From Candidatus Woesearchaeota archaeon (GTDB lineage: Archaea; Nanobdellota; Nanobdellia; SCGC-AAA011-G17; JACQNH01), in assembly GCA_023246445.1 (NCBI GenBank), contig JAHFIJ010000002.1, positions 1 to 56,122 of the forward strand: 56,122 nt of DNA, in the 5' to 3' direction. Made by a program: the position numbers and the translations under genes. Of the stretch, positions 17,451 through 44,073 are shown one piece after another. Every line of letters begins with the position of its first letter. The first letter of the stretch is position 1. The notes beneath the pieces were generated by a model. The model was not told the origin of the DNA. It ran no database searches and saw only the letters and a program-made list of their open reading frames with translations.

Positions 17451-17570
17451 AAGTAATTGATAATAATTAGTTTTAAAAAGTCTGTTTTTCAAGGTTTTAA
17501 GATGGAAAATGAGCAAATTATAGAGGTTAAGGAGTCTAAGCATAGTAAAATAGGATATATCAAGGATAAA
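17451..17570 (+). repeat. Direct repeat copy 1: orphan secE promoter plus first 23 codons
   Basis: 120 nt, 116/120 identical to 20300-20419. Encodes MENEQIIEVKESKHSKIGYIKDK and then runs into a stop. Confidence 0.9.
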
Positions 17571-17572
17571 CA

Positions 17573-17592
17573 GTATCTACTTGCGTAGATAC
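17573..17592. other. Perfect 8-bp stem / 4-nt loop hairpin at the repeat-cassette junction
   Basis: GTATCTAC-TTGC-GTAGATAC starts 3 nt after the end of repeat copy 1. Confidence 0.5.
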
Positions 17593-17704
17593 TGACATAA
17601 TGCCAGAAAGCTCGCATATTACAATAAGCTGGACAAAGCCAACTAATTCCCACGCAAAGCTCCCTAAAGAAATATTTATAAATATTCTAAAATTATCTAT
17701 TTAT

Positions 17705-18772
17705 ATGAGAAAAAAGATACAAGAAAGAGCGAAATGGGAAGGGTCTCCCTTTCCAGATTTATATGAAGATATACTTAAAACTCCACTTTGTGAAATTTTA
17801 GCAAAGGGTAGACATAGGTCTGAACTGATATTAATACACCATTTACATGAAGTCGCTCTTCCATTTATCAAATCCATGGCACAAGGTTATAAAATAAGAA
17901 AAATAATTGGTATACCTTATTCAAGCGTTGATTCAGTTGTTAAAGAACTGAAGAGCTTTTTTGATGTTATCGTTCCAAAAGAATTAGAGGAGATTTCAGG
18001 TATTGTGGAACAATCGGTTAATTTATCTAATAAGTCAGTTATAATTGAAGAAATTGGGGGGTATACTACAGATATTGCAGATTTCTTGGATAAATCTAAA
18101 AATGTAGTGGGTGTTGTCGAGGATACCCAGCAAGGCCATTGGAGATGGCAAAATACTTCACTGAATAGATTACCTGTTTTATCTGTCGCTTATTCAAGTA
18201 CAAAACGAATTGAGGATCACTTTGTTGCACAATCCATAATTGATGGCTTGGCTCGTTATTTGCATCAAAACAATCTAAAACCACTCAGAAACCAAAATAT
18301 TTTAGTCTTGGGATTTGGAAATATTGGGGAACAGTTGTGTCGATATCTTAAACCAATATGTAAGGATTTATCAGTTTATGACATAAACCCTATAAGATTA
18401 TTAAAAGCAAATGTTGATTATAATATCTCTCGTGATTTTTCCAATATAGATATTGTTCTTGGAGTTACTGGAAAACAATCAGTTACTATAGATGACGCAG
18501 ATAAATTAAATTCAAATATGTTATTAATATCGGGAAGCTCAAAAAGAATTGAGTTTGAACAAACTTTACCAGGGATTATTAATAACGGAGAACCAATTAA
18601 TCTAAGATATTCAGTTGTGCCATCGAAAGTTCTGGATTTAGTTTATGGTAGTTTAATATGTTGTATCAACAAATTAGATAATGGTTTTTCTCTTCAAGGA
18701 TTACATGATTTGGATTATCTCGAGCAACAAAAGATTGCAGAGAAATATAAAAGAATATATAATATAAGGTGA
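17705..18772 (+). CDS. Divergent S-adenosylhomocysteine-hydrolase-like NAD-binding protein
   Basis: Collinear with AdoHcyase: VIIEEIGG (cf DDGGD), VVEDTQQG (cf EETTTG), LPVLSVAYSSTKRIED (cf PAINVNDSVTKSKFD), Rossmann VLGFGNIGEQL. Several catalytic positions are substituted. ATG at 17705 follows TTTATAAAT by ~25 nt; the track ORF starts at 17600. Confidence 0.6.
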   Translation: MRKKIQERAKWEGSPFPDLYEDILKTPLCEILAKGRHRSELILIHHLHEVALPFIKSMAQGYKIRKIIGIPYSSVDSVVKELKSFFDVIVPKELEEISGIVEQSVNLSNKSVIIEEIGGYTTDIADFLDKSKNVVGVVEDTQQGHWRWQNTSLNRLPVLSVAYSSTKRIEDHFVAQSIIDGLARYLHQNNLKPLRNQNILVLGFGNIGEQLCRYLKPICKDLSVYDINPIRLLKANVDYNISRDFSNIDIVLGVTGKQSVTIDDADKLNSNMLLISGSSKRIEFEQTLPGIINNGEPINLRYSVVPSKVLDLVYGSLICCINKLDNGFSLQGLHDLDYLEQQKIAEKYKRIYNIR

Positions 18773-18779
18773 ATTTATT

Positions 18780-19241
18780 ATGGAAACAAAAAAAACAGAT
18801 CTAACCGTTGGAGCATGTATTATTTCAAATGGAAAAATTCTGCTTATGCTCCATAAAAAATTAAACAAATGGCTTTTTCCAGGTGGGCATATAGATCCAA
18901 ATGAAACCCCTGACATGGCAATAGTAAGAGAAGTAAAAGAAGAGACAGGATTAAATCTAAGATTTATGAATTTTAGTGAACTTAATCAATCGCCTGAAGA
19001 AATTGAAAAATTGGCAGTACCATTTCATGCTAACTTACATAATGTAGGAGATCATGATCATTACTGTTCTTATTATCTTGGAACTGTTGATAATCCTAAT
19101 TTTATAAAAAATCATGAAAGCAAAGATTTAAAATGGTTTAATATTGAAGAAATAAAAATGTTAGAAAACCTGCCTCCAAGTATTAAACAAATGGCAATAC
19201 TTGCTGTAGAAAAATACAACAAATTAAATGATAACTTATAG
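18780..19241 (+). CDS. Nudix hydrolase
   Basis: Nudix box GGHIDPNETPDMAIVREVKEETGL. Starts 8 nt after the upstream gene. Confidence 0.88.
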   Translation: METKKTDLTVGACIISNGKILLMLHKKLNKWLFPGGHIDPNETPDMAIVREVKEETGLNLRFMNFSELNQSPEEIEKLAVPFHANLHNVGDHDHYCSYYLGTVDNPNFIKNHESKDLKWFNIEEIKMLENLPPSIKQMAILAVEKYNKLNDNL

Positions 19242-19500
19242 GGGGCGCTTATATACTTTGCTGTCGTAGAGTTTAGTAGAAGCTTTAGGACAAACTCTTC
19301 GCCAATTTTTGCTCAACTTCATTTCGCAAAAACCGTTGCACTTTGGCTCAGGTTTTTCTTCGAAAAACGAATAGCGCAGGTTGTCCCACAAACATCTCTA
19401 AAAATTATTTTTAGCATCTTTTGGCTGCTTTTAACCCAACTTTGACACTTCCTGTCTGGGAACCTAAAATTTAGCCCTTATGGACAAATTTGTGTGGACG
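19242..19500. repeat. GC-enriched non-coding segment R2, relative of R1 (340-640)
   Basis: Blocks GTTGCACT (19335-19342), TGTCCC (19382-19387) and AATTATTTTT (19403-19412) occur in the same order and with similar spacing as in R1. Confidence 0.3.
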
Positions 19501-19561
19501 AAAACACAAATATTTTTTATTTGTTTAATATGGGAAAGTTTATTTTTAGTTCAAAAAATAT

Positions 19562-20049
19562 TTACCTCGATTCTTTTAGTATATCTGTCAGCAAATGTTT
19601 CTTTTCCTTGCCAAGATTAAGATCGATTATTTTAATTGTTTCCAGCTCATTTATCACTTTCCTTGCTGTTTGTTTTGTAAACCTCTCAATTATGCATTCT
19701 ATAAGGAAAGCCAATACACAGATAAAAACATGAGCCCTTACTCTTCTTTCCTCGTAGTGATATATGGGTCTTATATCCAGGAAGTTTTTTATTTCACAAA
19801 AAGCATTCTCTACAATTTGGAGTTCTTTGTAAGATTTCATTGCTTCTTTTGGTTCTAAGTTTGTATTTGTTACTAATAAGAACTTGCCTGCTATTTTCTT
19901 TTCATATTCATAATTCTCTTTATTTAAAGAGAATTTAAAATTATCTGCAAAGTTTAAATCAAATAGTCTTTTGTTTTTTCCAAGTAAATTATTAGCTTGT
20001 AAAATTAAAGCTTCTTTTTTTATGTTCTTTTTTTGTAGTTCATTTAATT
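19562..20049 (-). mobile_element. IS4/IS1634-like DDE transposase, C-terminal remnant
   Basis: Open frame ...KEAMKSYKELQIVENAFCEIKNFLDIRPIYHYEERRVRAHVFICVLAFL... is the conserved C-terminal block of this transposase type. Only ~160 codons remain and the catalytic N-terminal part is missing. Confidence 0.7.
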
Positions 20050-20299
20050 TCTAGTTTTTCTATTTCTTTAGTTGATAACAAGAATAATCACCTTCTTCCC
20101 AAGATGCTCTTTTGGAGCATCTATTTTTGCACCAGTACCAAATTTGGTAATAGTGTGCTCAAAATATCCTACTATATTTTTTACAGTTATTTCATTTGTT
20201 GCATGGGTTTTTATTCTTCTCATAATATATATCTAATACATATTAAGTATTAATTGATTTCTGTGTTCAAGAATATAGATTAAAAAGCTTTAAACAACT

Positions 20300-20419
20300 A
20301 AGTAATTGATAATAATTAGTTTTAAAAAGTCTGTTTTTCAAGGTTTTAAGATGGAAAATGAGCAAATTATAGAGGTTAGGGAATCTAAGCATAGTAAAAT
20401 AGGGTATATTAAGGATAAA
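20300..20419 (+). repeat. Direct repeat copy 2: functional secE promoter and 5' coding end
   Basis: 116/120 identical to 17451-17570 and continuous with intact secE. Confidence 0.9.
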
Positions 20420-20587
20420 TTGAAAAGCTTTTTAAGGGAATGTTTTAGAGTCTTACAGTTAACTAAGAAGCCAACCAAGGAAGAATTCAAAATAATTATA
20501 AAGGTTTCTTTGATAGGAATAGCGTTAATAGGCTTAATAGGGTTTTTAGTCCTATTGTTTAGCCAATTAATAAAAGGATTAATATGA
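20351..20587 (+). CDS. secE: Protein translocase subunit SecE (Sec61-gamma)
   Basis: KPTKEEF is followed by a single TM (IIIKVSLIGIALIGLIGFLVLLF). It holds the conserved position upstream of spt5-rpl11. ATG is at 20351. Confidence 0.85.
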   Translation: MENEQIIEVRESKHSKIGYIKDKLKSFLRECFRVLQLTKKPTKEEFKIIIKVSLIGIALIGLIGFLVLLFSQLIKGLI

Positions 20588-21090
20588 CAGAACAAATTGT
20601 AGAAGAAAGCCCAAAGATATATGCTTTAAGAACAACTGCAAATAGAGAGGATCAGGTATTTGATTTTATAATAGCTAATTTAGGAAAGAAAAATTTAGAG
20701 GTTTATAGCCTATTAAGACCTCATAGTTTAAGGGGGTATATATTTGTTGAGGCTAAGGATTTTGAAAATGTGGAAGAGGCTGCTTCTGGTGTTCCTTATG
20801 CAAGAGGAGTATTGCCCAGAACTGTTAATTATTCAGAGATAGAACATATGTTAGAACAGGTTAAATCTGCAGTTGCTATACAAAAGAATGATATTGTTGA
20901 GATAATATCCGGCCCATTTAAAAGAGAAAAGGCTAAGATAACAAGGATAGATACCCAAAAAGAGGAAGTTGTAGTTGAATTATTAGAATCTGCTGTTCCA
21001 ATTCCATTAACATTAAAAATAGATTCTGTGAAGGTTATAAGAAGAGAATCCGAGGAAGGAGAAAGCGAAGAGGATAAGAAAGAGGAATAA
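20584..21090 (+). CDS. spt5: Transcription elongation factor Spt5 (NusG)
   Basis: NGN domain (IYALRTTANREDQV, GYIFVEA) plus KOW (IVEIISGPFKREKAKITRID). ATGA overlap with secE. Confidence 0.9.
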   Translation: MTEQIVEESPKIYALRTTANREDQVFDFIIANLGKKNLEVYSLLRPHSLRGYIFVEAKDFENVEEAASGVPYARGVLPRTVNYSEIEHMLEQVKSAVAIQKNDIVEIISGPFKREKAKITRIDTQKEEVVVELLESAVPIPLTLKIDSVKVIRRESEEGESEEDKKEE

Positions 21091-21091
21091 A

Positions 21092-21874
21092 ATGGCAGAT
21101 GAAAAAATAGAATTTATGGTGGAAGGTGGAAAGGCTGCTGCTAATGCTCAAATTAGTCAAAAATTAGGACCGATGAAGATTAATATAGCTGAGGTTATGA
21201 AAAAGATTAATGAAAAAACTTCTGATATGAGTGGGATGCAGGTTCCTGTAAAATTACTAATTGATATTAAGACTAAAGAATATAAGATCGATATTGGAAC
21301 ACCACCTGTTGCTGAATTAATCAAAAAAGAATTAAGTTTGGAAAAAGGATCTGCAACTCCAAATACTGAAAAAAAAGGAAATTTAGGCTTTGAACAAATA
21401 ATTAAAATCGCTAAAATAAAACAAGCCTCTATGTTTACTAACAGTTTGAAATCTGCTGTTAAATCAGTTATAGGGAGCGCTGCTAGCATGGGTGTTTTGG
21501 TTGAGGGCAAGACTCCTTTAGAAATAAATCCTGAAGTTATAAATGGACAATATGATACTATGATTAAGGAAGAGAAAACTGAAATCAGTGCTGATAAAAA
21601 AGAATTATTAAATAAGCAACTGGAAGAAGTTAATAAAAGATTAAAGAAAGAGTTAGAGAGATTAAAGGCTGAAGAAGAGGCTGAGAAGGCTGCTGTTGTT
21701 GCTCCTACTGCAGAAGTCAAGGTAGAGGGTGAGGTTAAGGCTGAGGGAGAAGCTGGAAAATCTGAAGCTGGAAAGATTGCTCCAGGTGTTGAAGTCAAGG
21801 CCGGAGCTAAGCCTGAAGCTGGAAAGACTGAAGCTAAAAAACCAGAAGCCAAGCCTGAAGCAAAGAAGAAATAA
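21092..21874 (+). CDS. rpl11: Ribosomal protein uL11 with ~100-aa K/E/A-rich C-terminal tail
   Basis: GGKAAANAQISQKLGPMKINI and TPPVAELIKKE. From about residue 160 onward there is a coiled-coil-like then AEGEAGKSEAGK...KPEAKPEAKKK tail. Confidence 0.9.
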   Translation: MADEKIEFMVEGGKAAANAQISQKLGPMKINIAEVMKKINEKTSDMSGMQVPVKLLIDIKTKEYKIDIGTPPVAELIKKELSLEKGSATPNTEKKGNLGFEQIIKIAKIKQASMFTNSLKSAVKSVIGSAASMGVLVEGKTPLEINPEVINGQYDTMIKEEKTEISADKKELLNKQLEEVNKRLKKELERLKAEEEAEKAAVVAPTAEVKVEGEVKAEGEAGKSEAGKIAPGVEVKAGAKPEAGKTEAKKPEAKPEAKKK

Positions 21875-21949
21875 AATTTTCTTTAAATAGATTTATAAAT
21901 ATTAATTTTAGAGATTTTAATAGGTGGGTATTAAAGTTATTTACAAGAT

Positions 21950-22088
21950 GGGACCTTTAAAATGGCATCTAGTTGTATTATAACTTGGTTAGTATTCCAC
22001 CCTTGGGTATAGCTTTTCTTTTGGGGAAAACCCTGGAAAAGAAGAATAAAGAAAGGTGGAGATCCCGGTTCAAATCCGGGCAACCCCA
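21950..22088 (+). tRNA. tRNA-Pro(UGG), canonical 37/38 intron plus probable acceptor-stem 3/4 intron
   Basis: The 3' two thirds are clear: anticodon arm CCACC-CTTGGG[intron 22008-22053]A-GGTGG, T arm CCCGG-TTCAAAT-CCGGG, and 3' acceptor CAACCCC+A. The 5' acceptor GGGGTTG is only obtained by joining GGG (21950-21952) to GTTG (21972-21975). Confidence 0.7.
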
Positions 22089-22221
22089 TTTTATTAAATG
22101 TGCACTAGTTCAATAGATATAGCATTTTTTTATTCTTATTTTTTAATCTCCTTTAAAAACATTGAAACGTAAACCTTATAAATGTGGTGTAAGGGTTAAA
22201 TAGAATCTAGAAGGTATTAAA

Positions 22222-22434
22222 ATGAGTTCAACAAAAACAGTCAAATCAACAGGAAGATATGGTGTAAGGTATGGCTTAACTATAAGACACAGGGTTTTAG
22301 AGGTTGAGAAGACACAGAGAAAAAAACAAAAATGCCCTTACTGTGGAAGATTAAAGGCAAAAAGAATTTCAACTGGTATCTTTGAATGTGGAAAATGCAA
22401 TGCAAAATTTACCGGGAAGGCATATGAGGTTTAA
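22222..22434 (+). CDS. rpl37ae: Ribosomal protein eL43 (L37Ae)
   Basis: GRYGVRYG and the zinc ribbon CPYCGRLKAKRISTGIFECGKCNAKF. Confidence 0.92.
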   Translation: MSSTKTVKSTGRYGVRYGLTIRHRVLEVEKTQRKKQKCPYCGRLKAKRISTGIFECGKCNAKFTGKAYEV

Positions 22435-22436
22435 TA

Positions 22437-22574
22437 ATGGCAACTTACAAATGTTTTAGCTGTGAAAAAGTTATAAAAAAGGAATATATAAAGAAGAAAA
22501 TAAGATGCCCTTACTGCGGTTCTAAGATTTTATATAAGCCAAGAGATGTCGAGACTATAATCAAGGCGGATTAA
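22437..22574 (+). CDS. rpoP: RNA polymerase subunit P (Rpo12)
   Basis: 45-aa zinc ribbon MATYKCFSCEKV...IRCPYCGSKILYKPR. Below the ORF-track cutoff. In the conserved position after rpl37ae. Confidence 0.8.
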   Translation: MATYKCFSCEKVIKKEYIKKKIRCPYCGSKILYKPRDVETIIKAD

Positions 22575-22575
22575 A

Positions 22576-22905
22576 ATGACTCAAAAAGAAATTGAAGACA
22601 AAATAGAACAATTGCAATTATTTGAGCAAAATATTCAGGCTTTATTAATGCAGAAACAGTCATTTCAAAGCCAATTATTAGAGGTTGAAAATAGTTTAGA
22701 GGAGTTAAATAAGACAAGGGATAAACCTTACAGGATTATTGGACCTATAATGGTATTGAGTGATAAAGAAGAATTAAAAAAAGAATTAAAAGGCAAAAAA
22801 GAAGTATTAGATTTAAGAATTAACAGTCTTGATAAACAAGAAACTGAGATAAGAGCCAAGGCTAAAGAATTACAAGAAGAGGTTGTAAAATCACTTAAAA
22901 AGTAA
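22576..22905 (+). CDS. pfdB: Prefoldin beta subunit
   Basis: Two coiled-coil arms flank a central hairpin (YRIIGPIMVLSDKEE). Confidence 0.85.
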   Translation: MTQKEIEDKIEQLQLFEQNIQALLMQKQSFQSQLLEVENSLEELNKTRDKPYRIIGPIMVLSDKEELKKELKGKKEVLDLRINSLDKQETEIRAKAKELQEEVVKSLKK

Positions 22906-22927
22906 AATAAATTTCTTAGGGAGAAAA

Positions 22928-23188: not shown

Positions 23189-23248
23189 AGGTTTATAGAA
23201 AAGCTTATAAATTAAATAGCCTAAAATTCTTAAGTAAAAGGTGCATAA

Positions 23249-23715: not shown

Positions 23716-24237
23716 ATGGATAAACTAGAAAATCAAAACTGTCCTTTTTGCCATGAAAAGAAATTAATGTTAACACAGGAAGAAATAGAAATTCCTTATT
23801 TTGGAAAGACTTTTTTGTTTGGGATGCAATGTTCCGGCTGTGGTTACGATGAATCAGATATTGAAGCGGATGAACCTAAAGAACCTTCTAAATATGTTTT
23901 AGAAACCAGCGGTGAGGAAGATATGAAAATAAGAGTTGTTAAAAGTTCTCAAGCTACTGTTAAAATTCCTACTTTGAAAATGGAAGTTAAGCCGGGGCCT
24001 ATTTCAGAAGGTTATGTTAGTAATGTTGAGGGAGTGTTAGACCGATTTAAAAAAATTATTGAAGAGCAAAGAGACTTAAGTGAAGATGAGGATGTGAAAC
24101 AAAATGCCAAAAATTTACTTAAAAAATTATGGAAGGTTAAGTTAGGAGATATTCCAATAAAACTGATAATTGAGGATCCTTCAGGAAATTCTGCTATTAT
24201 ATCTCCTAAAGCTAAGATTGAGAAATTGAAGGTATAG
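23716..24237 (+). CDS. ZPR1-type zinc-finger protein
   Basis: CPFCHEKKL...CSGCGY zinc ribbon followed by a ZPR1-like beta domain. Confidence 0.75.
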   Translation: MDKLENQNCPFCHEKKLMLTQEEIEIPYFGKTFLFGMQCSGCGYDESDIEADEPKEPSKYVLETSGEEDMKIRVVKSSQATVKIPTLKMEVKPGPISEGYVSNVEGVLDRFKKIIEEQRDLSEDEDVKQNAKNLLKKLWKVKLGDIPIKLIIEDPSGNSAIISPKAKIEKLKV

Positions 24238-24268
24238 TTTTAAAAAGATTTAGTTTCTATTTAATTAG

Positions 24269-24928
24269 ATGAAAGTCTTGTTTGTGCCGACGTATGTGAA
24301 ATTAGAGATCTTACCTAGTTTAAGAAATGTTAAAACTAAAGAGAAAAGATTAGGGGTAATAACAACTGCACAATTTGTTAATCAATTGGATAAAATTTGT
24401 GAGAATTTAAAAGGAAGCGTTAAAGGCGGACAAATATTAGGGTGTAATGTAGAAAGCGCCAAAAAGATTTTAAATAATGTTGATGCATTTTTGTATATTG
24501 GTTTAGGAATGTTTCATCCCTGGGCTTTAACAGTTTTAAATAAGCCCGTTTACATATTAAATCCACTAACTAAAGAATTTAAAAAAATAAGTGAAGAAGA
24601 AATTGAAAAATATAGGAAGGAAAGAAAAGGCAAAATATTAAGATTTATACATGCTAAAACTGTTGGATTATTAGTAAGTGTTAAGCCATTACAGCAGAAT
24701 TTAAGGAAAGCTTTGGAGCTGAAAGACTCTATTATCGGCAAAAAAGTTTATATTTTTGTTTCTGATAATCTAAATGAAAGACAGTTAGAGGATTTTAAAG
24801 GGATAGACAGCTGGGTTAATACTGCCTGCCCGAGAATTGAAGGGGAGAAAATATTAAATTATTCTGAAATTCCTGAGAAATATTTAAAGAAAAAGATTCT
24901 ATACAGTTATTTGGAAGGGAGTGAGTGA
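24269..24928 (+). CDS. dph2: Diphthamide synthase Dph2-like protein, unusually short (219 aa)
   Basis: GVITTAQF, ILGCN, VGLLVSVKP and NTACPRI. The N-terminal domain of typical ~340-aa archaeal Dph2 seems to be missing. Confidence 0.6.
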   Translation: MKVLFVPTYVKLEILPSLRNVKTKEKRLGVITTAQFVNQLDKICENLKGSVKGGQILGCNVESAKKILNNVDAFLYIGLGMFHPWALTVLNKPVYILNPLTKEFKKISEEEIEKYRKERKGKILRFIHAKTVGLLVSVKPLQQNLRKALELKDSIIGKKVYIFVSDNLNERQLEDFKGIDSWVNTACPRIEGEKILNYSEIPEKYLKKKILYSYLEGSE

Positions 24929-31920: not shown

Positions 31921-31967
31921 TTTATTGCACTGCATAGCTAAGGTCTTTTCCAGGCAATTTCATAATA
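31921..31967 (-). repeat. Orphan copy of endA 3' end (last 9 codons, stop, 17 nt)
   Basis: 43/47 identical to 33367-33413 and still encodes YYEIAWKRP-stop. Lies 33 nt upstream of the 31049-31888 start codon. Confidence 0.8.
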
Positions 31968-32073
31968 AAAAGCTATTTATCTCTGTAACCAAATTTTTTA
32001 TTATATGCCTGGTGATCTGCAATATCCAAGATAAAAGCGATTATTTCTATTTCTTCATTATTAGTTAAAGTTA

Positions 32074-32832
32074 TCAAGCATTTAACAAGCAATCAACTGC
32101 CGCATCCATTAATTTATTTAAGGTTTGTTTAACTTGTTTCGCATTAAATTGAGGATCCCATTTGTCTTCTCCTAGAATATCTGATACTACAAATGCAGCA
32201 GCAATTTTAACTTTTCTTAATTTGGCAACACTAAACAGAGCAGATGCTTCCATTTCCACTGTTTTCACATCTTGTTTCTTATAATGTTTAACTTCTGTTT
32301 TTGTTTCTCTATAAGGTGCGTCTATTGTCCATGTTGTCCCTTGTTGAAAATTAAGACCTTGCTTTTTTATTGATTTTTTTAATTTTTCTGTCAGATTTTT
32401 ATTTGGATATGAATATTTACTATGTGGAAAGTAATGATAGCTCGTTCCTTCATCTCTAATTGCTTTATCGCATAAGAATACTCCAAAGCCTTGTAGGCCG
32501 CCAGCAGAACCTATATTTAGAAATTCTTTTCCTCCTAATGCAATCAATTCCTCTATAACTGTTGTTGCATGTGGTGAACCTATTCCAGTCATCAAAACTA
32601 CTCCGATATCTTTATACTGATGAATTGTTATCAATCTATAATAATTTATTTTTTTTGAGTTGAACTTCTTTCTAAAATATTTTAGAATCTTTGGGTAATA
32701 AATTAAGATATACTTTGTAGGCTTTTTAACTGGGCTTTTCTTTATCTTCTTCCAGTTAACATAATCTTCTGGATTAAATAGAGCTGCTTCAGCATGTTTA
32801 TTCTTGTATTGTGGATATACCATAATAATCAA
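32074..32832 (-). CDS. Nucleoside phosphorylase (PNP/UDP-1 family)
   Basis: GIGSPHATTVIEELIALG and VEMEASALF. Confidence 0.8.
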   Translation of the reverse strand: MIIMVYPQYKNKHAEAALFNPEDYVNWKKIKKSPVKKPTKYILIYYPKILKYFRKKFNSKKINYYRLITIHQYKDIGVVLMTGIGSPHATTVIEELIALGGKEFLNIGSAGGLQGFGVFLCDKAIRDEGTSYHYFPHSKYSYPNKNLTEKLKKSIKKQGLNFQQGTTWTIDAPYRETKTEVKHYKKQDVKTVEMEASALFSVAKLRKVKIAAAFVVSDILGEDKWDPQFNAKQVKQTLNKLMDAAVDCLLNA

Positions 32833-32922
32833 TAAATAAAGTTCAAATAAAAAGCTTTCTGAACCAATAAAAAGGTGACACTTACTTTACAGCTTCTTTG
32901 GATAAAATAATACGGACTATCT

Positions 32923-33201
32923 TCATAATTCTATTCCTTCAAGAATTGCTTTTTTTAAGTTTGGATTTGTGTTGTCAATCCAAGTTATTCCCTTTAGCGT
33001 CACGGCGATTTTGTTGCTTTTTTCTAAATATCCAAGAATCAACATCAGCGTATTGTGGTTTACTTTTCTTGGTAACTTCCTTTTGAGTTCGGCTATAGAA
33101 ATGATACTATCATTCATTTTTTTTAAAGTATCTTCTACCATAATAACTGTGTTTAATGTTGCCCAATGAACTTTTTTCTCTCTGAGGTTTATTAGTGCCA
33201 T
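32923..33201 (-). CDS. Small wHTH-like protein (92 aa)
   Basis: IISIAELKRKLPRKVNHNTLMLILGYLEKSNKIAV. Size and pattern resemble small wHTH proteins of archaeal plasmids and viruses. Confidence 0.45.
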   Translation of the reverse strand: MALINLREKKVHWATLNTVIMVEDTLKKMNDSIISIAELKRKLPRKVNHNTLMLILGYLEKSNKIAVTLKGITWIDNTNPNLKKAILEGIEL

Positions 33202-33366: not shown

Positions 33367-33413
33367 TTCATTGCGCTACATAGCTATGGTCTTTTCCAGG
33401 CAATTTCATAATA
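33367..33413 (-). repeat. endA 3' end, repeat copy attached to the intact gene
   Basis: Partner of 31921-31967. Confidence 0.8.
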
Positions 33414-33968
33414 GGTGCATGATCCTTCTTCGTCAACAATAGCCATTAGCAATCTTTTTCTTGTTGAGTGGGCTACACGATTTTTAGCTGCGAATTCATA
33501 CCATGTTAAAGTTTCTGTTTCATGAACAGGGTAAACAATCCATTTGGCATGATCTTCACCTGGTTTAATGCCTCTATCATAAACCCTAAAGTCTGCACCG
33601 AATTTTAGAGCTGTTTTGACTATATAGCCCCTATTTCTTAGATCTGAATAGGCACAATAACGAACCCAGAATTTAGGCTCTACTTTTGTTGCTTTTTTAA
33701 TGTAATTATCTGAGTTTAATTCTGTTTTACCATCTTTTATAATCATTTTCCCACGCTCAATTAAATGCAGGGCTTCAACCAAGGCATATTGCATTTTACC
33801 TTTAATTGGCTCTCCATATCTGCCTTGATCATAAAATAGCCTTGAAACCTGAGAATCAGGAGCTAAAACTCTTTCTCTGGATAGTTCAGCTAGGATTTTT
33901 TCTTCAGTTTCGGGCAGCTTCTCAACTGCTTCTGAAACTACGATTTTTGCTTTTTCTTCTTTTGCCAT
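33384..33968 (-). CDS. endA: tRNA-splicing endonuclease EndA (194 aa)
   Basis: RNRGYIVKTALKFGADFRVY, HAKWIVYPV and STRKRLLMAIVD. ATG at 33968 (MAKEEK); the longer track ORF overlaps the rnz promoter. Confidence 0.88.
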   Translation of the reverse strand: MAKEEKAKIVVSEAVEKLPETEEKILAELSRERVLAPDSQVSRLFYDQGRYGEPIKGKMQYALVEALHLIERGKMIIKDGKTELNSDNYIKKATKVEPKFWVRYCAYSDLRNRGYIVKTALKFGADFRVYDRGIKPGEDHAKWIVYPVHETETLTWYEFAAKNRVAHSTRKRLLMAIVDEEGSCTYYEIAWKRP

Positions 33969-38565: not shown

Positions 38566-38569
38566 CTCT

Positions 38570-38731
38570 TTATTTTTTTCTTATTGGCCTGAATCTTCTT
38601 TTCCCACACTTTTTACAGGGAATCAGGCCCTTCATTAATTTTGTAGGAAGACCTCTTATTTTAGTCTTACAATTCCTGCATACAAATACATTAGCGAATA
38701 ATCTTTTTGTTGTTTCTGCGAATTTTACCAT
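38570..38731 (-). CDS. rpl40e: Ribosomal protein eL40
   Basis: 53 aa: MVKFAETTKRLFANVFVCRNCKTKI...IPCKKCGKRRFRPIRKK. Below the ORF-track cutoff. Confidence 0.8.
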   Translation of the reverse strand: MVKFAETTKRLFANVFVCRNCKTKIRGLPTKLMKGLIPCKKCGKRRFRPIRKK

Positions 38732-38732
38732 T

Positions 38733-39140
38733 TTATTTTATTTGTTTTATTACTTTTTGACCCATCATAAGCCAATATATGACTTGGACGTTTTCTTTTA
38801 TCTGATCCTTTAATTCTTCAGGAATTTCCAATTCAAAGGTTTCAAAGCTTTCTAAATCCATTACTGAGGCTTTGTCTTCTGTTACAGCTAATATCTGGGC
38901 TGACTTTTTTTCTATTAAAGGAACATTGATTTTTTCATGACCCGGGGCTACAAAAACCCTTTTTTTATTGTCAATTATACCCACACAGGTAATGCGACAT
39001 TTTGCATGACCGTGTTTTCCAGGCTTTGATGTTTCTATGCTGGTTATTATGCATGGGTGCCCTTCCCATTCTATGGTCATGCCTTTTTTTACGCTTCCTG
39101 CATCTGTTTGCCTGTAATCAGCCATCTGAGAATAAAACAA
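38733..39140 (-). CDS. eif5a: Translation initiation factor 5A
   Basis: Hypusine loop TSKPGKHGHAK. The start may be the internal MADYRQ at 39125. Confidence 0.92.
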   Translation of the reverse strand: MFYSQMADYRQTDAGSVKKGMTIEWEGHPCIITSIETSKPGKHGHAKCRITCVGIIDNKKRVFVAPGHEKINVPLIEKKSAQILAVTEDKASVMDLESFETFELEIPEELKDQIKENVQVIYWLMMGQKVIKQIK

Positions 39141-39211
39141 AGAACTATTTATAAGTGTTTTGGCTCATTTTTTACGGAAATCTTTAATAACTTTGAAATT
39201 ATTTTGGGTTA

Positions 39212-39367
39212 ATGGTAAAGAAAATTAAAAGAGATAATAGGCTGTTATATCAATGTGAAGAATGTAAGTTTTTGTATTTGAAGAAAGAATTAGCTTTTAA
39301 ATGTGAAGTGTGGTGCAGAGAAAATAAAAGCTGTAATTTAGAGATTACTAAACTTGCTGTAAAATAA
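39212..39367 (+). CDS. Small Cys-rich protein, 51 aa
   Basis: MVKKIKRDNRLLYQCEECKFLY...FKCEVWCRENKSCN. Below the ORF-track cutoff. Confidence 0.35.
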   Translation: MVKKIKRDNRLLYQCEECKFLYLKKELAFKCEVWCRENKSCNLEITKLAVK

Positions 39368-39940
39368 TTATCTTTTTCTTTTAACTGCTTTAATTTTAGA
39401 TTTTTTTAATTTCTCTATCTCTTTTGCCTGTGCATTTATTAATTTTTCATAGGATGATGATTTAGATTCCAATTCTTTTACTCTTTCCAGAACAACTGCA
39501 CGGGTTTTTTTAATATCTTCAATTTCCTGCATTAATTTCTCTATGGGCTTTGCTTTTTCTGTTAGTTCTATTAACCTTTCCTTCATTGATGTTGAATCTT
39601 TCTCCAATAAATTTAATAATTTTAATCTTGCATTTATATCGCTTATTTGATTGAAAGTATTGTTGATCTCTTTTTGGAAATCTATCTTAATAACCTCTGC
39701 TAATTTTTCTGCTGTTACCTTATTTAAATCTGAAATATCCTTTAAAGCTTTTTCCAAGAATTTAGTTTTTAGGTTTAAATCAAAAATTCCTTTGCTTAAA
39801 TTTGCGACAGCTAACCATGATTGAATGTTTTGAGCGTTTTTTTCATTAGAATAAATATTTCTGAATCTTGTTGCCTCTTTGATTTGCGCTTCCAAATGTG
39901 TTTTAATATCGCCTGGTAATTTAGTTCTCCATGCTTCCAT
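39368..39940 (-). CDS. Coiled-coil protein, unknown function
   Basis: Heptad-rich, Lys/Glu-rich 190-aa ORF. Confidence 0.5.
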   Translation of the reverse strand: MEAWRTKLPGDIKTHLEAQIKEATRFRNIYSNEKNAQNIQSWLAVANLSKGIFDLNLKTKFLEKALKDISDLNKVTAEKLAEVIKIDFQKEINNTFNQISDINARLKLLNLLEKDSTSMKERLIELTEKAKPIEKLMQEIEDIKKTRAVVLERVKELESKSSSYEKLINAQAKEIEKLKKSKIKAVKRKR

Positions 39941-40042
39941 ATGGCGTTATAGCCTTAAATCTTTTATAAGCTTTTCCATTTTATAGTAGTTACATTATAA
40001 AATATAGGTAGGTTTTTAAATATAAATCTTAAGAAAACTTTA

Positions 40043-40684
40043 ATGGCAGAAATAAAGAAAGGGGATTTTGTGGAATTAGAGTATGTAGGAAAGTTAAGCA
40101 CTGGAGAAGTGTTTGATCTAACCAATAAAGAGGATGCTAAAAAATTTAATTTATTTGATGAGAAAGCAGAATATAAGCCTAGAGTTATTTGTGTGGGGGA
40201 AAATGAAATTTTAAAGCCAATAGATGATTTTTTGATTGGGAAAGAAACAGGGAAAAGCTATAATATAGAGATTAAAAAAGAAGATACAAAATGGAAAAGA
40301 GACCCAAGCCTGATAAGGGTGATGAATTCTAATTCATTAAGAGACCAGAATATTAAGCCTTATCCTGGGATGAGTTTAGTTATAGATGATGTAATAGCAA
40401 GAGTAGTAAGTGTTTCTGGTGGAAGATTAGTAATTGATTTTAATCATCCACTGGCTGAAAAGGATGTTTCATATGATCTGAAACCATTAAAAATAGTTGA
40501 AGATATTAATGAGAAATTAAAAGCAGTTATGTTTAGTCATTTTTCTTATCATGAGAGCATAGAATTTAAAAATGGAAAAGTAAATTTATTTAATATACCC
40601 AAAGAATTCCAGGATAAAGTAGGGGAAAGATTAAAGGCATTAATTAAAGAGGTTAAAATAGTGGATTTTAAGGAAAGGAAGTGA
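40043..40684 (+). CDS. FKBP-type peptidyl-prolyl isomerase (SlyD-like)
   Basis: GDFVELEYVGKLSTGEVFD, an IF-domain-like insert, and VIDFNHPLAEKDV. Confidence 0.85.
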   Translation: MAEIKKGDFVELEYVGKLSTGEVFDLTNKEDAKKFNLFDEKAEYKPRVICVGENEILKPIDDFLIGKETGKSYNIEIKKEDTKWKRDPSLIRVMNSNSLRDQNIKPYPGMSLVIDDVIARVVSVSGGRLVIDFNHPLAEKDVSYDLKPLKIVEDINEKLKAVMFSHFSYHESIEFKNGKVNLFNIPKEFQDKVGERLKALIKEVKIVDFKERK

Positions 40685-40776
40685 TGTTTTTAATACATTT
40701 AATACAGTATAAATATGTTTAAATAGGGGGTGTGTTCTTATTATAGAATAGATACTGTATAAAAAGAGAGGATAAA

Positions 40777-41901
40777 ATGGATCAGTTTTCTCAACAATCA
40801 CAACAAAAAACAGAAAATAAGAATGCTTACCTGAAGCAAAGCACTAATTATTCTAATCCTTTGGATGCTGAGTTAGAGCAGTTATTAGCCAAGCAAAGAG
40901 CAAAGATAAAAGTAGTTGGCTGTGGCGGAGGAGGAAATAATACAATTAACAGAATGAGCGATGTTGGGATTACAGGTGTTGAAACTATAGCTATAAATAC
41001 AGATGCTCAAGATTTGCTTTATACAAATGCCAATACTAAAATTTTGATCGGTAAAGAATTAACACAAGGTTTAGGGGCTGGTGGGATTCCAACTGTAGGG
41101 GAACAGGCTGCCAAAGAATCAGAGCATGAGATAAAGTCTAAACTGCAGGGAGCAGATATGATATTTATTACCTGTGGATTAGGTGGGGGAACAGGAACCG
41201 GCTCTGTTTCTGTAGTTGCTGATGTTGCTAAGAAATTAGGATGTTTAAGTGTTGGTGTTGTGACAATGCCATTTCAGATGGAGGGGCAGAGAAGATACGA
41301 AAATGCTGTTTGGGGTTTGGAGAAATTAGAAAATGTAGTGGATACGTTAATTGTAATACCCAATGATAAATTATTAGAATTAGCACCTGATTTGCCATTG
41401 CATACTGCTTTTAAGATCGCTGATGAAATTTTAACTAATGCTGTTAAAGGGATTGCAGAATTAGTAACAAGATCTGGTCTGGTAAATTTAGATTTTGCTG
41501 ATATAAAAACTGTAATGAGTGACGGTGGGGTTTCAATGATTGGTGTTGGAGAGGCAGATTCAGAAGACAGGGCTATTGCTGCTGTTGACAGGGCGATTAG
41601 CAATCCATTATTAGATGTTGATATCTCTGGTGCAACTGGTGCATTGGTTAATGTTTCGGGTGGGACTGATATGACCTTACAGGAAGCAAGGCAAGTAGTT
41701 GAAAGAGTATCTGAAAAATTAAGCCAGGATGCTAAAATAATATGGGGGGCACAGATTTCAGAGGATTTAGAAGGGACAATAAGAGTATTATTAATTGTTA
41801 CAGGGGTAAGTTCACCTCAAATCTTTGGTCCTAAAAGAAAAATGTCACAGAAAGAAACTGAAGAGATTGGGGGGGAATTAGGGATTGAGTTTATTAATTA
41901 A
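40777..41901 (+). CDS. ftsZ: Cell division GTPase FtsZ
   Basis: GCGGGGNNTINRM, tubulin signature GLGGGTGTGS, and NLDFADIKTVM. Confidence 0.95.
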   Translation: MDQFSQQSQQKTENKNAYLKQSTNYSNPLDAELEQLLAKQRAKIKVVGCGGGGNNTINRMSDVGITGVETIAINTDAQDLLYTNANTKILIGKELTQGLGAGGIPTVGEQAAKESEHEIKSKLQGADMIFITCGLGGGTGTGSVSVVADVAKKLGCLSVGVVTMPFQMEGQRRYENAVWGLEKLENVVDTLIVIPNDKLLELAPDLPLHTAFKIADEILTNAVKGIAELVTRSGLVNLDFADIKTVMSDGGVSMIGVGEADSEDRAIAAVDRAISNPLLDVDISGATGALVNVSGGTDMTLQEARQVVERVSEKLSQDAKIIWGAQISEDLEGTIRVLLIVTGVSSPQIFGPKRKMSQKETEEIGGELGIEFIN

Positions 41902-41902
41902 A
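41746..41902 (+). repeat. Direct repeat copy 1: 3' end of intact ftsZ
   Basis: 157 nt. Differs from 43918-44073 by 3 substitutions and one G in a G-run. Confidence 0.9.
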
Positions 41903-42361
41903 ATGAAAACAGAAGATATTGGCAAAAATAAAAGTAATGAAGAAATTGTGTGGTATCTTATTGTTTTAGACAGTGGTGCCAGCAGCGCAAATATCTCTCG
42001 GGTTGATGTTACTGAAATGATCTTGCGTGGTAGAAGGCCAAATGCAGGGGATATAGGGAGATTTGCTCCAGATTATGTTTTTAAACCATGTTTTCATTCC
42101 CCTGAACCAAAAAAGGGGATTGATTTTGAATATTGCGGTTGGTTAAAGGATATTTTAAAGTATTCTCCAAATATTCCTAAAGCGAAACATGATTGTTCTG
42201 ATCCATGTTGGCGTGCTAAAGTTACTAAACATACTTTCGCTGGACTGAAATGTAAATTTGTTTCTTTAGAGGGAAGAATTCATGCTGTTTGGAAAAAAAG
42301 AATTCCTGTTCCGATTTATGGGTCTTTAAATGAATATTTTGCTGAAAAAGATCTTTCTTGA
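41903..42361 (+). CDS. Hypothetical Cys-rich protein
   Basis: ATG begins immediately after the repeat. Cys-containing motifs are CFH, YCGW, HDCSDPCW and LKCK. GC-richer than neighbours. Confidence 0.5.
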   Translation: MKTEDIGKNKSNEEIVWYLIVLDSGASSANISRVDVTEMILRGRRPNAGDIGRFAPDYVFKPCFHSPEPKKGIDFEYCGWLKDILKYSPNIPKAKHDCSDPCWRAKVTKHTFAGLKCKFVSLEGRIHAVWKKRIPVPIYGSLNEYFAEKDLS

Positions 42362-42470
42362 GCTTTTTGATCTATATTTCCAAATAACGAAATATTTATT
42401 TTAGTGATAACAATTGGTATGTTGTAAGAAAGATAAAACCCCTGAATAAATAACTTTTCTTATTATTTGT

Positions 42471-42510
42471 TTTTTTAGTATACCATTTTTAGTAAATAAA
42501 TATTTATATA
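42471..42510 (+). repeat. 40-nt repeat copy A (TTTTTTAGTATA-N4-TTTTAGTAAATAAATATTTATATA)
   Basis: 36/40 identical to 46045-46084. Overlaps the 3' end of the ATPase gene. Confidence 0.7.
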
Positions 42511-43802
42511 CTAATTTCTTCAATAAGGAATTTCCATAATGGGATAAATTTTATTCCCTCTTCTTTTTTTTCTATATTTTTTGTAAGCAGTATAAGTTCC
42601 CTTGTTTTCTTGAATGCTGCCTTAAAATCGTATAAAGATTTTATTTCTCGTTCCGGAATTTTATCAGTATAAGTCACATTTATTGCAGTCAGGGAGTGAT
42701 CGTGATTTTTTATAATGAAATCAACTTCTGTTTCTTTTTTGGACTTCCAATAATAAGCTTCAGCGCCCCTTCTTTTTAAATCAATGAACACCTGGTTTTC
42801 AGCAAGTTTGCCTTCATCACCAGAGAATTTAAAGGAGACTGCGTTTCTTAAACCATTGTCTATGCAATATACTTTTGAAGCTCGGCTTTTCTGTTCCTTC
42901 ATAGAATAAGCGAAGTGGTCTATAGTAAATAAAAGAAATGCTTCATTAGTATAGGATAAATAATCTTTTATGGCTTCGTAAGATAAACCTAAGCTATTTC
43001 TAACATTTCTTAAAGAAACGAATCCCGTTATGTTTGTCATTAGATATTTTATAAATTCGCTTGTTTTCTTGCTGTTAAGATTATGTCTATCTATGATATC
43101 TTTGAAGAGGATATCGTTGAAGTATTGATCTAACAGTTTTGTTTTGAAGTCTTTTTCTTGAAAGAAAACTTTAGGGAACCCGCCCTGTAATAAATATTCA
43201 TTAAGAGATTTTAGTATGAGGTATTTTTCTTTTTCGAGAAATATCCCCTTAACTGCTTTTGAAAAATCAAGATTAATCCCATTAAAAATCAAGAACTCTT
43301 TAAAACTAAGAGGATACACTTCAAAAGTAAGATTCCTCCCAGTCAGTAGTGTTGCATATTCTTTTTTTAGGAGATAAGAACAAGAGCCAGATACAACGAA
43401 CTTACAGTTGGTCTTCAAATCATAATGTCTTCTTATCCATGCTTCCCATTTGTCTTTTTTGTGAATTTCATCAAAGAATATATAGGCTTTCTTAGCAGGA
43501 TTTAGGTTTGATCTGTATGTTTGGTAAATGTCTTCAAGACTGTCTTCTGTAAAACGAGTATCTTCAAGATTGACGAAAAGAATTTGTTCTGGTTCTACTT
43601 CTTTTTTTAGCAAACGTTCTATCATTTGATACATAAATGTGCTTTTTCCAGATCTTCTTACCCCCAGAATAATAGTTATCTCTTCTATATCTACTGATTT
43701 AACAAGAAGGGAATAATTCAAACGAGGCTTTCCTTTTAGTTCATCAGGCACTTGTTTTGTCGACCACCAAGGGTTTGCTTCTGCGAGTTTTTGTATTTCC
43801 AT
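42504..43802 (-). CDS. AAA+ ATPase with DUF4143-like C-terminal domain (COG1373 type)
   Basis: Walker A GVRRSGKST, Walker B IFFDEIH, and a C-terminal region typical of this ATPase family. Confidence 0.85.
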   Translation of the reverse strand: MEIQKLAEANPWWSTKQVPDELKGKPRLNYSLLVKSVDIEEITIILGVRRSGKSTFMYQMIERLLKKEVEPEQILFVNLEDTRFTEDSLEDIYQTYRSNLNPAKKAYIFFDEIHKKDKWEAWIRRHYDLKTNCKFVVSGSCSYLLKKEYATLLTGRNLTFEVYPLSFKEFLIFNGINLDFSKAVKGIFLEKEKYLILKSLNEYLLQGGFPKVFFQEKDFKTKLLDQYFNDILFKDIIDRHNLNSKKTSEFIKYLMTNITGFVSLRNVRNSLGLSYEAIKDYLSYTNEAFLLFTIDHFAYSMKEQKSRASKVYCIDNGLRNAVSFKFSGDEGKLAENQVFIDLKRRGAEAYYWKSKKETEVDFIIKNHDHSLTAINVTYTDKIPEREIKSLYDFKAAFKKTRELILLTKNIEKKEEGIKFIPLWKFLIEEISI

Positions 43803-43849
43803 TTTATGTCCGAAATGCTTATATTATCGTTGTAAATCGACTATATAAA

Positions 43850-43902
43850 TGTTACGGTGTAGCATAGCATTTAGGCTATTTTTGTTACGGTGTAGCATAG
43901 CA
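43850..43902. repeat. Two perfect 20-nt direct repeats TGTTACGGTGTAGCATAGCA, 33-nt period
   Basis: Located at 43850-43869 and 43883-43902, 48-100 nt upstream of the ATPase ATG (43802), just beyond a TATA-like CTATATAAA. Confidence 0.8.
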
Positions 43903-43917
43903 ATATTCTCTCTAATA

Positions 43918-44073
43918 GGGGCACAGATTTCAGAGGATTTAGAAGGGACAATAAGAGTATTATTAATTGTTACAGGAGTTAATTCACCTCAAATCTTTGG
44001 TCCTAAAAGAAAAATGTCACAGAAAGAAACTGAAGAGATTGGGGGGAATTAGGGATTGAGTTTATTAATTAAA
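43918..44073 (+). pseudogene. Orphan ftsZ 3' fragment (direct repeat copy 2), frameshifted
   Basis: Encodes GAQISEDLEGTIRVLLIVTGVNSPQIFGPKRKMSQKETEEIGG and then loses frame (G6 versus G7). Confidence 0.9.

Follow-up and report, generated by a model that had tools for sequence, protein, structure and literature searches.

Duplicated ends of conserved genes bracket small recombinase-less cassettes in a Woesearchaeota contig: candidate footprints of single-crossover insertion

Three gene blocks lie between copies of conserved gene ends

The stretch of DNA analysed in this study, hereafter the window, is the whole of an NCBI contig from a Woesearchaeota archaeon (JAHFIJ010000002.1), 56,122 nucleotides (nt) long and without Ns. 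Its archaeal gene content includes SRP54, SecE-Spt5-L11, SepF, EndA, eIF5A, and FtsZ, and its FtsZ matched only Woesearchaeota/Nanoarchaeota assemblies, with 63-76% identity to the species representatives. At three places in the window, a conserved gene remains intact, a block of other genes lies beside it, and an orphan copy of the end of the conserved gene closes the block on the far side. These blocks are referred to as cassettes C1 (at secE), C2 (at endA), and C3 (at ftsZ), and their features are listed in Table 1. The layout had been proposed in a first-pass annotation made from the sequence letters, and all three repeat pairs were recovered at the same coordinates. Comparison of the copies also bore out the ends that had been named (secE 5' end, endA 3' end, and ftsZ 3' end), their lengths of 47-157 nt, their identities of 91-97%, and the frameshift in one of them.

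The three direct-repeat pairs are real and far beyond chance. When repeats of at least 38 nt and at least 90% identity, spaced by 0.3-8 kb, were collected, four pairs were obtained from the real window and none from 20 block-shuffled windows. The C1 repeat consists of the secE promoter region from position -50 together with codons 1-23. The C2 repeat contains the last 9 codons of endA (33384-33968, minus strand), the stop codon, and 17 nt more, and the C3 repeat contains the last 52 codons of ftsZ (40777-41901), the stop codon, and 1 nt. The cargo had been taken to be often GC-richer than its surroundings, which was not the case: its GC fraction is 0.30-0.32, the mean of the window is 0.311, and the GC maximum of the region falls on ftsZ.

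Genomes with at least 90% FtsZ identity, including those of the loci L083, L088, and L172, were compared as close relatives. Recurrence of the layout was assessed by self-comparison of approximately 2 Mb of related loci and by an indel census against the close relatives. Cargo families were assigned with Pfam, for all cargo open reading frames (ORFs) of the window, and with PADLOC; a precomputed Pfam annotation covered window positions 20056-54476.

The orphan-to-cargo junctions recur in other contigs

The window was compared with a second assembly in the European Nucleotide Archive (ENA; ERZ27297570) and with the Logan contigs (k=31) of run SRR14366766; the proteins are identical and the source is apparently the same. 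One ENA contig (20056-41905) contains all of C2. Another (42304-54476) contains D1, the AAA gene, F', the binding-protein gene, TrmB, D2, and the RIO gene of the ftsZ region, and a third, of 2.9 kb (17311-20190), contains the secE orphan, p390, and the Nudix gene. The Logan contig L001 is identical to window 42304-43947 and crosses the junction between the AAA gene and F'. The Logan contig L002 runs from approximately 17500, which the gene coordinates place inside the secE orphan, into the cargo and ends at approximately 19508, upstream of the 92-amino-acid (aa) ORF. Since the ENA and Logan contigs cross them, the orphan-to-cargo junctions are real sequence.

Window 41906-42303 (398 nt, inside p158) was covered by no other contig on record, and an exact look-up of p158 was negative. 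Two independent assemblies stop at exactly 41905 and 42304, both within p158. These stops, together with the lack of a full p158 on record, suggest that two divergent alleles of the p158 5' part exist in the sampled population.

The endA site is empty in one relative and filled in another

Uninterrupted target sites in related genomes had been put forward as a check on the cassettes, and such a site was found at endA. In L088, the endA stop codon is followed by 46 nt and then by the next gene, and the repeat segment is present once. The window and L083 have a filled site, with the repeat beginning at one and the same codon and thus with an identical left boundary. The L083-type endA bracket was present in three loci (L083, L084, and L090).

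In L083, the original type of cargo is found, namely the wH92 gene overlapping a gene for a 116-aa ParE-like toxin. In the window, only the last ~100 nt of the toxin gene are kept, and its 5' two-thirds are replaced by a nucleoside phosphorylase gene. An orthologue of this phosphorylase (90% aa identity; 85% nt identity, restricted to window 32060-32862) was found at a different position of the L083-type genome, with PolX and an insertion sequence (IS) transposase gene of the IS6/IS240 type as neighbours. From the toxin remnant, the wH92/toxin pair of L083, and the relocated orthologue, C2 appears to be an old toxin-antitoxin cassette, shared with the L083 lineage, that was later overwritten by a housekeeping gene from elsewhere. 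The phosphorylase is a common salvage gene across Woesearchaeota; as it is so widespread and its orthologue occupies another place in the relative, a role as a toxin-like effector was dropped. IS6/IS240-family elements form translocatable circles, and a circle of this type is a possible vehicle for the phosphorylase gene. At 6001-7602 of L177, a locus of the L083-type genome, the end of a transposase gene of this family overlaps with the phosphorylase gene.

The wH92 protein is a probable antitoxin or regulator of the original cassette. Its homologues are paired with ParE-like genes in L047, L150, and L147. A function of wH92 as a recombination protein was considered and set aside, since a protein of 85-95 aa whose gene overlaps a ParE-like gene suits an antitoxin or regulator. 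As for the ParE/YoeB assignment of the toxin, the L047 homologue falls below the Pfam cut-offs, and ParE_toxin matches of 1e-11 were obtained in other brackets. Lineage-specific states are common to both endA repeat copies within a genome (AGA...TAG in the window; CGR...TAA in L083), which hints at exchange between the two copies within each genome.

The ftsZ slot holds two interleaved repeat pairs

A second repeat pair, D (42471-42510 / 46045-46084), which was missing from the first-pass annotation and is the fourth of the pairs that passed the repeat filter, interleaves with the ftsZ pair, and the order is F, D1, F', D2. The D motif is also found 3' of p145 in L083. In L083 and L088, the slot contains ftsZ, p141/145, D, HicB-HicA, and RIO. 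In L172, the nearest genome, it contains ftsZ, a decaying p158 homologue, the binding-protein gene, TrmB, a HicB remnant, and RIO. Compared with L172, the extra DNA of the window is 42362-44064, that is, the spacer, D1, the AAA gene, the 19-nt-repeat region, and F'. The window has, in this order, F, p158, D1, AAA, F', binding protein, TrmB, and D2, which reads as one version of the slot placed after another, with the AAA gene linking them. Such interleaving is exactly what would be expected if a circle had been excised from the corresponding locus in a related genome and integrated by a single crossover, either at F or at D. As to which of the two was the crossover site, the divergence of p158 and the S/N site are uninformative.

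The C3 cargo had been described as unrelated to its surroundings, but it includes p158, which is the usual type of ftsZ neighbour. The AAA gene is absent from the ftsZ slot of every close relative recovered (L083, L088, and L172). The p158 protein has 41-44% aa identity to its homologues in the relatives, compared with 54-60% when these homologues are compared with each other; its divergence exceeds that of the genes around it, and it has no family match in Pfam or PADLOC. The two copies of GTTACGGTGTAGCATAGCA resemble an operator or iteron. F' carries the N residue found in all relatives, and its frameshift means that it is not part of a second intact ftsZ. The last 9 nt of F' (TTAATTAAA) are shared with the convergent binding-protein gene, whose end they encode, including its stop codon.

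In the distant Woesearchaeota L004, L006, L011, L023, L047, and L147, secE-Spt5-L11 lies directly 3' of ftsZ, while ftsZ and secE are 20 kb apart in the window, from which it follows that this lineage split an ancestral ftsZ-secE neighbourhood. Both gene ends at the sides of the break, those of ftsZ and secE, now carry orphan copies.

The secE slot contains a gene shared with bacteria

The slot between p187 and secE is filled with different genes in every relative recovered, and no empty secE site was found among these close relatives. A small IS remnant with bounding inverted repeats stands immediately before each of the two secE copies. The orphan differs from the functional copy by three synonymous changes and one K/R change.

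The p390 gene, whose true start is probably the ATG at 17705, is foreign and most resembles a gene that occurs in a bacterial context, on 24 contigs (loci L173-L176) among genes for RuvB, GyrA, FtsH, and ribosomal protein S1. The identity is 78% at the aa level and 81% at the nt level over 17704-18765 only, and the homology ends at the ORF ends. This looks like a recent gene transfer between a bacterium and an archaeon. A p390-NUDIX fusion protein (P0236) exists elsewhere, which indicates a functional link between the two C1 cargo genes.

The rve fragment that had been placed just outside the left C1 repeat was matched by Pfam rve_3. The IS4-like transposase remnant proposed inside C1 fared less well: the 92-aa ORF is present, but it lacks Pfam support, and the Y..R...E......K-type motif was recognised by eye only.

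The sequence TTAGTTTTAAA(A/T)AG occurs approximately 20-25 nt before the start codons of ftsY, secE, and dph2 (1053-1090, 17467-17504, 20316-20353, and 24235-24274). It is likely a promoter consensus (B recognition element/TATA) with leaderless transcripts. Several cassette insertion points lie at or adjoin it.

Table 1. Positions of the repeats, cargo genes, and neighbouring features of the three cassettes in the window
Feature	Position	Strand	Description
C1 repeat pair	17451-17570 / 20300-20419		120 nt, 97% identical; first 80 nt exact, 4 mismatches after
IS remnant	17095-17451		Imperfect inverted repeats 17095-17120 / 17426-17451; end coincides with start of left secE copy
rve_3 fragment ORF	17145-17420	+	Pfam rve_3, E=3.5e-8; just outside left C1 repeat
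Orphan secE 5' unit	17451-17570	+	Promoter-like TAGTTTTAAAAAG, ATG at 17502, 23 codons, then out-of-gene sequence and stop
p390	17600-18772	+	AdoHcyase_NAD/HcgC-like Rossmann protein; weak Pfam matches
Nudix hydrolase	18780-19241	+	8 nt 3' of p390; Pfam NUDIX 1e-18; PADLOC candidate defence family PDC-S07, 1.4e-14
92-aa ORF	19562-19840	-	Possible IS4-type transposase C-terminal remnant; no Pfam match at E<=0.01
Small element	20005-20293		Inverted repeats 20005-20029 / 20269-20293; ends 7 nt before functional secE copy
DUF2080 gene	20068-20223	-	"Transposon-encoded protein", Pfam DUF2080 1.3e-12; inside the 20005-20293 element
Functional secE 5' unit	20300-20419	+	Runs into secE (20351-20587), then Spt5, L11
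C2 repeat pair	31921-31967 / 33367-33413		47 nt, 91% identical
Orphan endA 3' end	31921-31967	-	YYEIAWKRP* and 17 nt; 32 nt upstream of the start of a 279-aa gene; position of native intergenic region
Toxin gene 3' remnant	31972-32070	-	"...KKFGYRDK*", ParE/YoeB-like; DNA homology to 3' end of the intact 116-aa L083 toxin gene
Nucleoside phosphorylase	32074-32832	-	PNP_UDP_1, Pfam 2.2e-32
wH92	32923-33201	-	92 aa, predicted winged-helix; 88% identical in L083, overlapping toxin gene there
Functional endA 3' end	33367-33413	-	Within intact endA
C3 repeat pair (F / F')	41746-41902 / 43918-44073		157 nt, 3 substitutions and one G run shortened by 1 nt
F, functional ftsZ 3' end	41746-41902	+	Within intact ftsZ
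p158	41903-42361	+	Homologue of the 141-145-aa gene directly 3' of ftsZ in all close relatives; same TAAAATG overlap
D1	42471-42510	+	40-nt copy (37/40) of terminator/promoter-like D2; overlaps AAA gene stop codon
AAA_14/DUF4143 ATPase	42504-43802	-	Pfam; PADLOC PDC-S01, 3.7e-106
Two copies of GTTACGGTGTAGCATAGCA	43852-43903	+	Exact 19-nt repeats, 33 nt apart, upstream of AAA gene
F', orphan ftsZ 3' fragment	43918-44073	+	2 synonymous changes, one S>N, 1-nt deletion
Periplasmic binding-protein gene	44065-45192	-	Resident in L172 lineage; absent in L083 and L088 lineages
TrmB regulator gene	45289-46038	+	Resident in L172 lineage; absent in L083 and L088 lineages
D2	46045-46084	+	Continues into ~150 nt conserved with relatives, upstream of RIO kinase gene (46269-46877)

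The same layout recurs in other Woesearchaeota

A search for further gene-end duplications in related metagenome-assembled genomes had also been suggested at the outset, and at least 10 further repeat-bracketed mini-cassettes of the same layout were found in other Woesearchaeota assemblies. At the ftsZ 3' end of L047, the cargo is a winged-helix gene with a ParE-like gene, and the repeat copies differ at five bases, each time synonymously. At the sepF 3' end of L031, two cassettes stand in tandem with the same repeat re-used. At the ZPR1/Dph2 boundary, L092 and L093 carry different cargo at the same point. Three brackets were found in L083, at the PLDc_N 3' end, the RIO promoter, and the tRNA-Thr gene. 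Other brackets lie at the L11 5' end (L023) and at a gene for a 138-aa protein (L055); L075 was listed among the assemblies with the same layout, and an ordinary tandem paralogue duplication was also reported there. L150 contains an island of 3.2 kb of toxin-antitoxin modules. The bracket of L005 encloses ftsZ itself, which indicates that chromosomal fragments can be cargo.

The cassettes are 0.4-3.5 kb in size with tight gene boundaries, lie in either orientation, and were read as having AT-rich promoter-like spacers of their own. Most of the recurrent brackets carry toxin-antitoxin genes. The Pfam families in the 48 cargo ORFs of 22 brackets include ParE (4), HicA, AbiEii, MazE, HEPN/nucleotidyltransferase, and Gp49, and no integrase or transposase was found among these ORFs by Pfam. 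The bias of the cargo toward nucleoside- and nucleotide-handling enzymes, seen by the first-pass annotation in the window, therefore does not generalise: cargo across the relatives is mainly toxin-antitoxin or defence-like.

A block of 3.4 kb (47742-51155), with ORFs of 261 aa and 876 aa, is missing in both L083 and L088; no direct repeat flanks it, and it represents a gene gain by another route. Such repeat-less indels indicate that the bracket route is one route of change and not the only one.

Synonymous differences point to a second functional allele as the source of one repeat copy

Within coding sequence, the two copies of the repeats are set apart by 17 synonymous and 4 non-synonymous changes, and three of the latter are K/R or S/N replacements. 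This synonymous excess is significant against a synonymous fraction of 0.25 (binomial P=1e-7) and also against 0.38 (P=7e-5), which is the derived fraction expected if the orphan decays neutrally. The excess suggests that one of the copies came from another functional allele rather than arising by local decay. The repeats range from 17 to 157 nt across the brackets, and decay of the longer ones is visible in L083.

Several kinds of specific recombination were considered. In 19 repeats, the best shared 7-10-mers were no commoner than in 200 random control sets, and a single sequence-specific recombination core was rejected. For all repeats, on both strands of the three window pairs, the DNA folding z-scores were between -1.4 and +1.1, giving no hairpin potential; no IntI integrase gene or attI site next to an array was found in the window. 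Integron attC sites were accordingly rejected, the repeats being copies of coding or promoter sequence without a folding signal. No inverted repeats pairing the two ends of any cassette were found, only two small IS remnants in C1 being so bounded; a target duplication made by a transposon or IS was rejected, as the repeats are 17-157 nt long and no terminal inverted repeats surround the cassettes. No tyrosine or serine recombinase was detected in the cargo ORFs of the window by Pfam, nor in window 20056-54476 by the precomputed Pfam annotation, and the initial observation that an intact recombinase is lacking was upheld by Pfam for the three cassettes and for the 22 brackets elsewhere. Since there is no fold, no shared k-mer, no constant length, and no terminal inverted repeat, homology-addressed integration suits the data better than a specific recombinase, a transposase, or an integron.

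A proposed origin: small circles inserted by a single crossover

We consider that the cassettes may be the footprints of single-crossover (Campbell-type) insertion of small circles into variable slots beside conserved genes; among the explanations considered this is the best, and to us it is about as likely as not. Each circle would carry the cargo and a short copy of the neighbouring conserved gene end, either the promoter and 5' codons or the 3' codons and stop. This copy would come from another functional allele, i.e., from a related genome. Recombination within the copy would bring the cargo in and keep the essential gene intact, leaving the other copy as an orphan direct repeat. The crossover would most likely be made by the host homologous-recombination machinery or by a sequence-indifferent recombinase acting in trans, since the cassettes contain no recombinase and the repeats share no site. 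After insertion, the slot would keep changing by gene replacement, IS insertion, and decay. The Campbell-type reading was already offered in the first-pass annotation. It gains from the architecture, the empty site of L088, the 17:4 ratio, the recurrence, the lack of recombinases and of a common site, the two slot borders carried by C3, the L005 bracket, and a cargo GC equal to that of the background, whereas the cargo as described in that annotation had to be corrected. The circular intermediate, the homology-driven crossover, and a related archaeon as donor are what we infer from these data.

Several observations weigh against this reading. The material consists of assembled contigs, and neither a circular form nor an empty-site read nor a donor allele was seen in it. 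A length of 17-30 nt, as found for some repeats, is short for homologous recombination. The junction between F' and the binding-protein gene lies on the 9-nt palindromic microhomology TTAATTAAA, which points to at least one illegitimate join in the history of C3. The synonymous excess could also arise from duplication in place followed by allelic replacement of the functional gene. The p390 gene is bacterial and had no homology to guide it, so that its first capture would still need illegitimate recombination or IS activity. The C1 block (17311-20190) owes its position to joins in IS-like sequence on either side; the second assembly did not resolve these joins, and its two contigs share positions 20056-20190, within the DUF2080 element. 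Moreover, the recombinase-negative scan covers the window and the brackets, and the rest of the genome was not searched for a trans-acting enzyme.

Non-autonomous or decayed integrative elements are an unlikely explanation, and the one that fits best after circle insertion. In this case, attL and attR would be the work of a site-specific (tyrosine) integrase whose gene lies at another place in the genome, belongs to a virus or plasmid, or was later lost, and the gene end would have been carried by attP. Archaeal integration into the 3'-distal parts of protein-coding genes and into tRNA genes, with repeats and tandem arrays, is documented (PMC6563490); the L083 bracket at the tRNA-Thr gene, a classic target, the tandem array in L031, and the shared insertion point of L092 and L093 with its different cargo would fit such an element, and an attP selected to restore the gene would also explain the synonymous excess. 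Nevertheless, no integrase or integrase fragment was found in the 22 brackets, their 48 ORFs, or the 56-kb window, and a cognate autonomous element at the same site was not found in the ~2 Mb of related loci, whole genomes not having been searched. At least 12 unrelated targets without a common motif would require many lost integrases or one non-specific enzyme. The small size and tight gene boundaries of the cassettes, as well as the presence of both chromosomal borders of the slot in C3, also argue against this explanation, as does the result for the three cargo proteins tried (p390, wH92, and AAA), which had no relatives in IMG/VR viral contigs.

Capture of DNA at a staggered double-strand break or by template switching, with no circle involved, seems distinctly improbable to us. 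Fill-in would duplicate 17-157 nt, and later allelic replacement would give the synonymous differences. Such events would account for the broad range of repeat lengths, the microhomology beside F', the capture of a bacterial gene without homology to the recipient, tight single-gene units such as the phosphorylase, and the repeat-less indels in the same region (e.g., 47742-51155). They would leave unexplained the interleaved D repeat and the two slot borders in the C3 insert, they need an extra process for the 17:4 excess, and they do not predict the L031 tandem arrays with their re-used repeat.

Two further possibilities can hardly be maintained. Chimeric joins of co-assembled strain variants or repeats would agree with the breaks of the second assembly at 17311, 20056/20190, 41905, and 42304, with the IS-like bounds of the C1 block, and with the lack of any contig on record encoding the whole of p158, but independent contigs span all of C2 and the stretch from D1 through AAA, F', the binding-protein gene, and TrmB to D2, Logan contigs cross the secE'-cargo and AAA-F' junctions, the frameshifted F' does not come from a second intact ftsZ, and the same architecture is present in at least 10 unrelated assemblies, with the endA bracket in L083, L084, and L090. 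A local tandem duplication of the gene end, its spare copy decaying neutrally and the cargo unrelated to it, is equally improbable: ordinary tandem paralogue duplications do occur in L072 and L075, but the cargo is foreign or relocated and not duplicated neighbouring DNA, the filled endA site differs from the empty L088 site by the cassette and one extra repeat unit, and the synonymous excess rejects neutral decay.

Other features of the window and of a related locus

The window also contains a tRNA-Thr gene (54696-54812; anticodon TGT by reading) with a T-loop intron of ~40 nt, which ARAGORN missed and of which Rfam matched only 54696-54751. A second intron-containing tRNA-like gene lies at approximately 21986-22092, 3' of L11, and its intron matches that of the tRNA-Thr gene with 94% identity over 35 nt (repeat D14). 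Introns so nearly identical suggest a mobile or recently copied tRNA intron. The splicing endonuclease gene endA lies in the same window as both tRNA introns.

In L092 (4314-7400), the relative of window 15169-16503 encodes an SRP54 of 1028 aa with an insertion of ~585 aa, which starts with Cys right after the P-loop GSGK and is probably an intein. The SRP54 of the window is without that insertion.

Relation to known systems

Integrated archaeal mobile elements are typically several kb or more in size. In Thaumarchaeota, integrated elements have attL and attR in the 3'-distal parts of protein-coding or tRNA genes, and their integration occurs via a tyrosine recombinase or casposase (PMC6563490). 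The cassettes described here are like them in their flanking direct repeats, the gene end supplied by the element, the empty site in a relative, the re-use of sites, and the tandem arrays. Unlike them, they measure 0.4-3.5 kb, contain no recombinase in 22 cases, have repeats of up to 157 nt, and also use 5' ends and promoters.

The tycheposon islands of Prochlorococcus contain partial-tRNA repeats and degenerate remnants (bioRxiv 10.1101/2020.12.28.424599). Successive insertions separated by partial target copies, integrase-less remnants, and adaptive or defensive cargo are common to both systems. However, tycheposons have tyrosine recombinases and tRNA targets, whereas most targets here are the ends of protein-coding genes, and an intact element was not encountered.

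Integron cassettes and clusters of attC sites without an integrase gene (CALINs) occur in Archaea, including Nanoarchaeota (PMC9668308). Like CALINs, the cassettes are small, rich in toxin-antitoxin genes, devoid of a recombinase of their own, and arranged in arrays, sometimes with no integrase nearby. In contrast to the folded attC boundaries of integron cassettes, their boundaries are coding or promoter copies without hairpin potential, and they lie in either orientation with their own promoter-like spacers.

Campbell-type single crossover, as in suicide-vector merodiploids, duplicates the homology segment as direct repeats around the insert. The gene stays intact in the product only if the cloned segment includes the end of the gene, and such events are known from laboratory use and from plasmids. 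The cassettes have the same repeat-insert-repeat product beside an intact gene. To our knowledge, there is no description of Campbell-type integration as a way in which DPANN archaea routinely gain genes in nature.

C1-C3 resemble integrative elements in having direct repeats on both sides of the insert and a reconstituted target gene, and the att-like repeats are not accompanied by a recombination module. The cis-mobilizable elements (CIMEs) of Streptococcus are att-flanked inserts without a recombination module that are moved in trans. The Int-pTN3 integrase of Thermococcus reportedly recombines any sufficiently long identical sequences. Action of the CIME or pTN3 type would make recombinase-less cassettes mobile.

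Repeat-flanked integration into archaeal 3' gene ends, empty sites, and tandem re-use are already established for integrase-bearing elements. The cassettes described here are set apart by the combination of very small size without any recombinase, boundaries that consist of gene-end copies with 5' ends and promoters included, many unrelated targets, and inserts possibly derived from the chromosome of a relative.

Significance for Woesearchaeota and DPANN archaea

DPANN archaea have tiny genomes, depend on hosts, and contain few recognised mobile elements, and their acquisition of defence, toxin-antitoxin, and metabolic genes is poorly understood. We speculate, with considerable doubt, that a homology-addressed, recombinase-free cassette system operates in Woesearchaeota and perhaps in DPANN archaea generally. 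In such a system, circles with gene-end tags of 20-160 nt would be inserted by host recombination, pop out through the repeats, and move between related cells, also fixing genes from co-resident bacteria such as p390.

A recurrent, recombinase-less addition of genes beside intact essential genes would explain the variable slots that lie between conserved genes in DPANN genomes. The same route would offer a concrete path for the capture of genes across domains. Truncated "pseudogenes" beside an intact copy should not be dismissed as assembly noise, and orphan gene-end fragments may be used as markers of recent gene gain in metagenome-assembled genomes.

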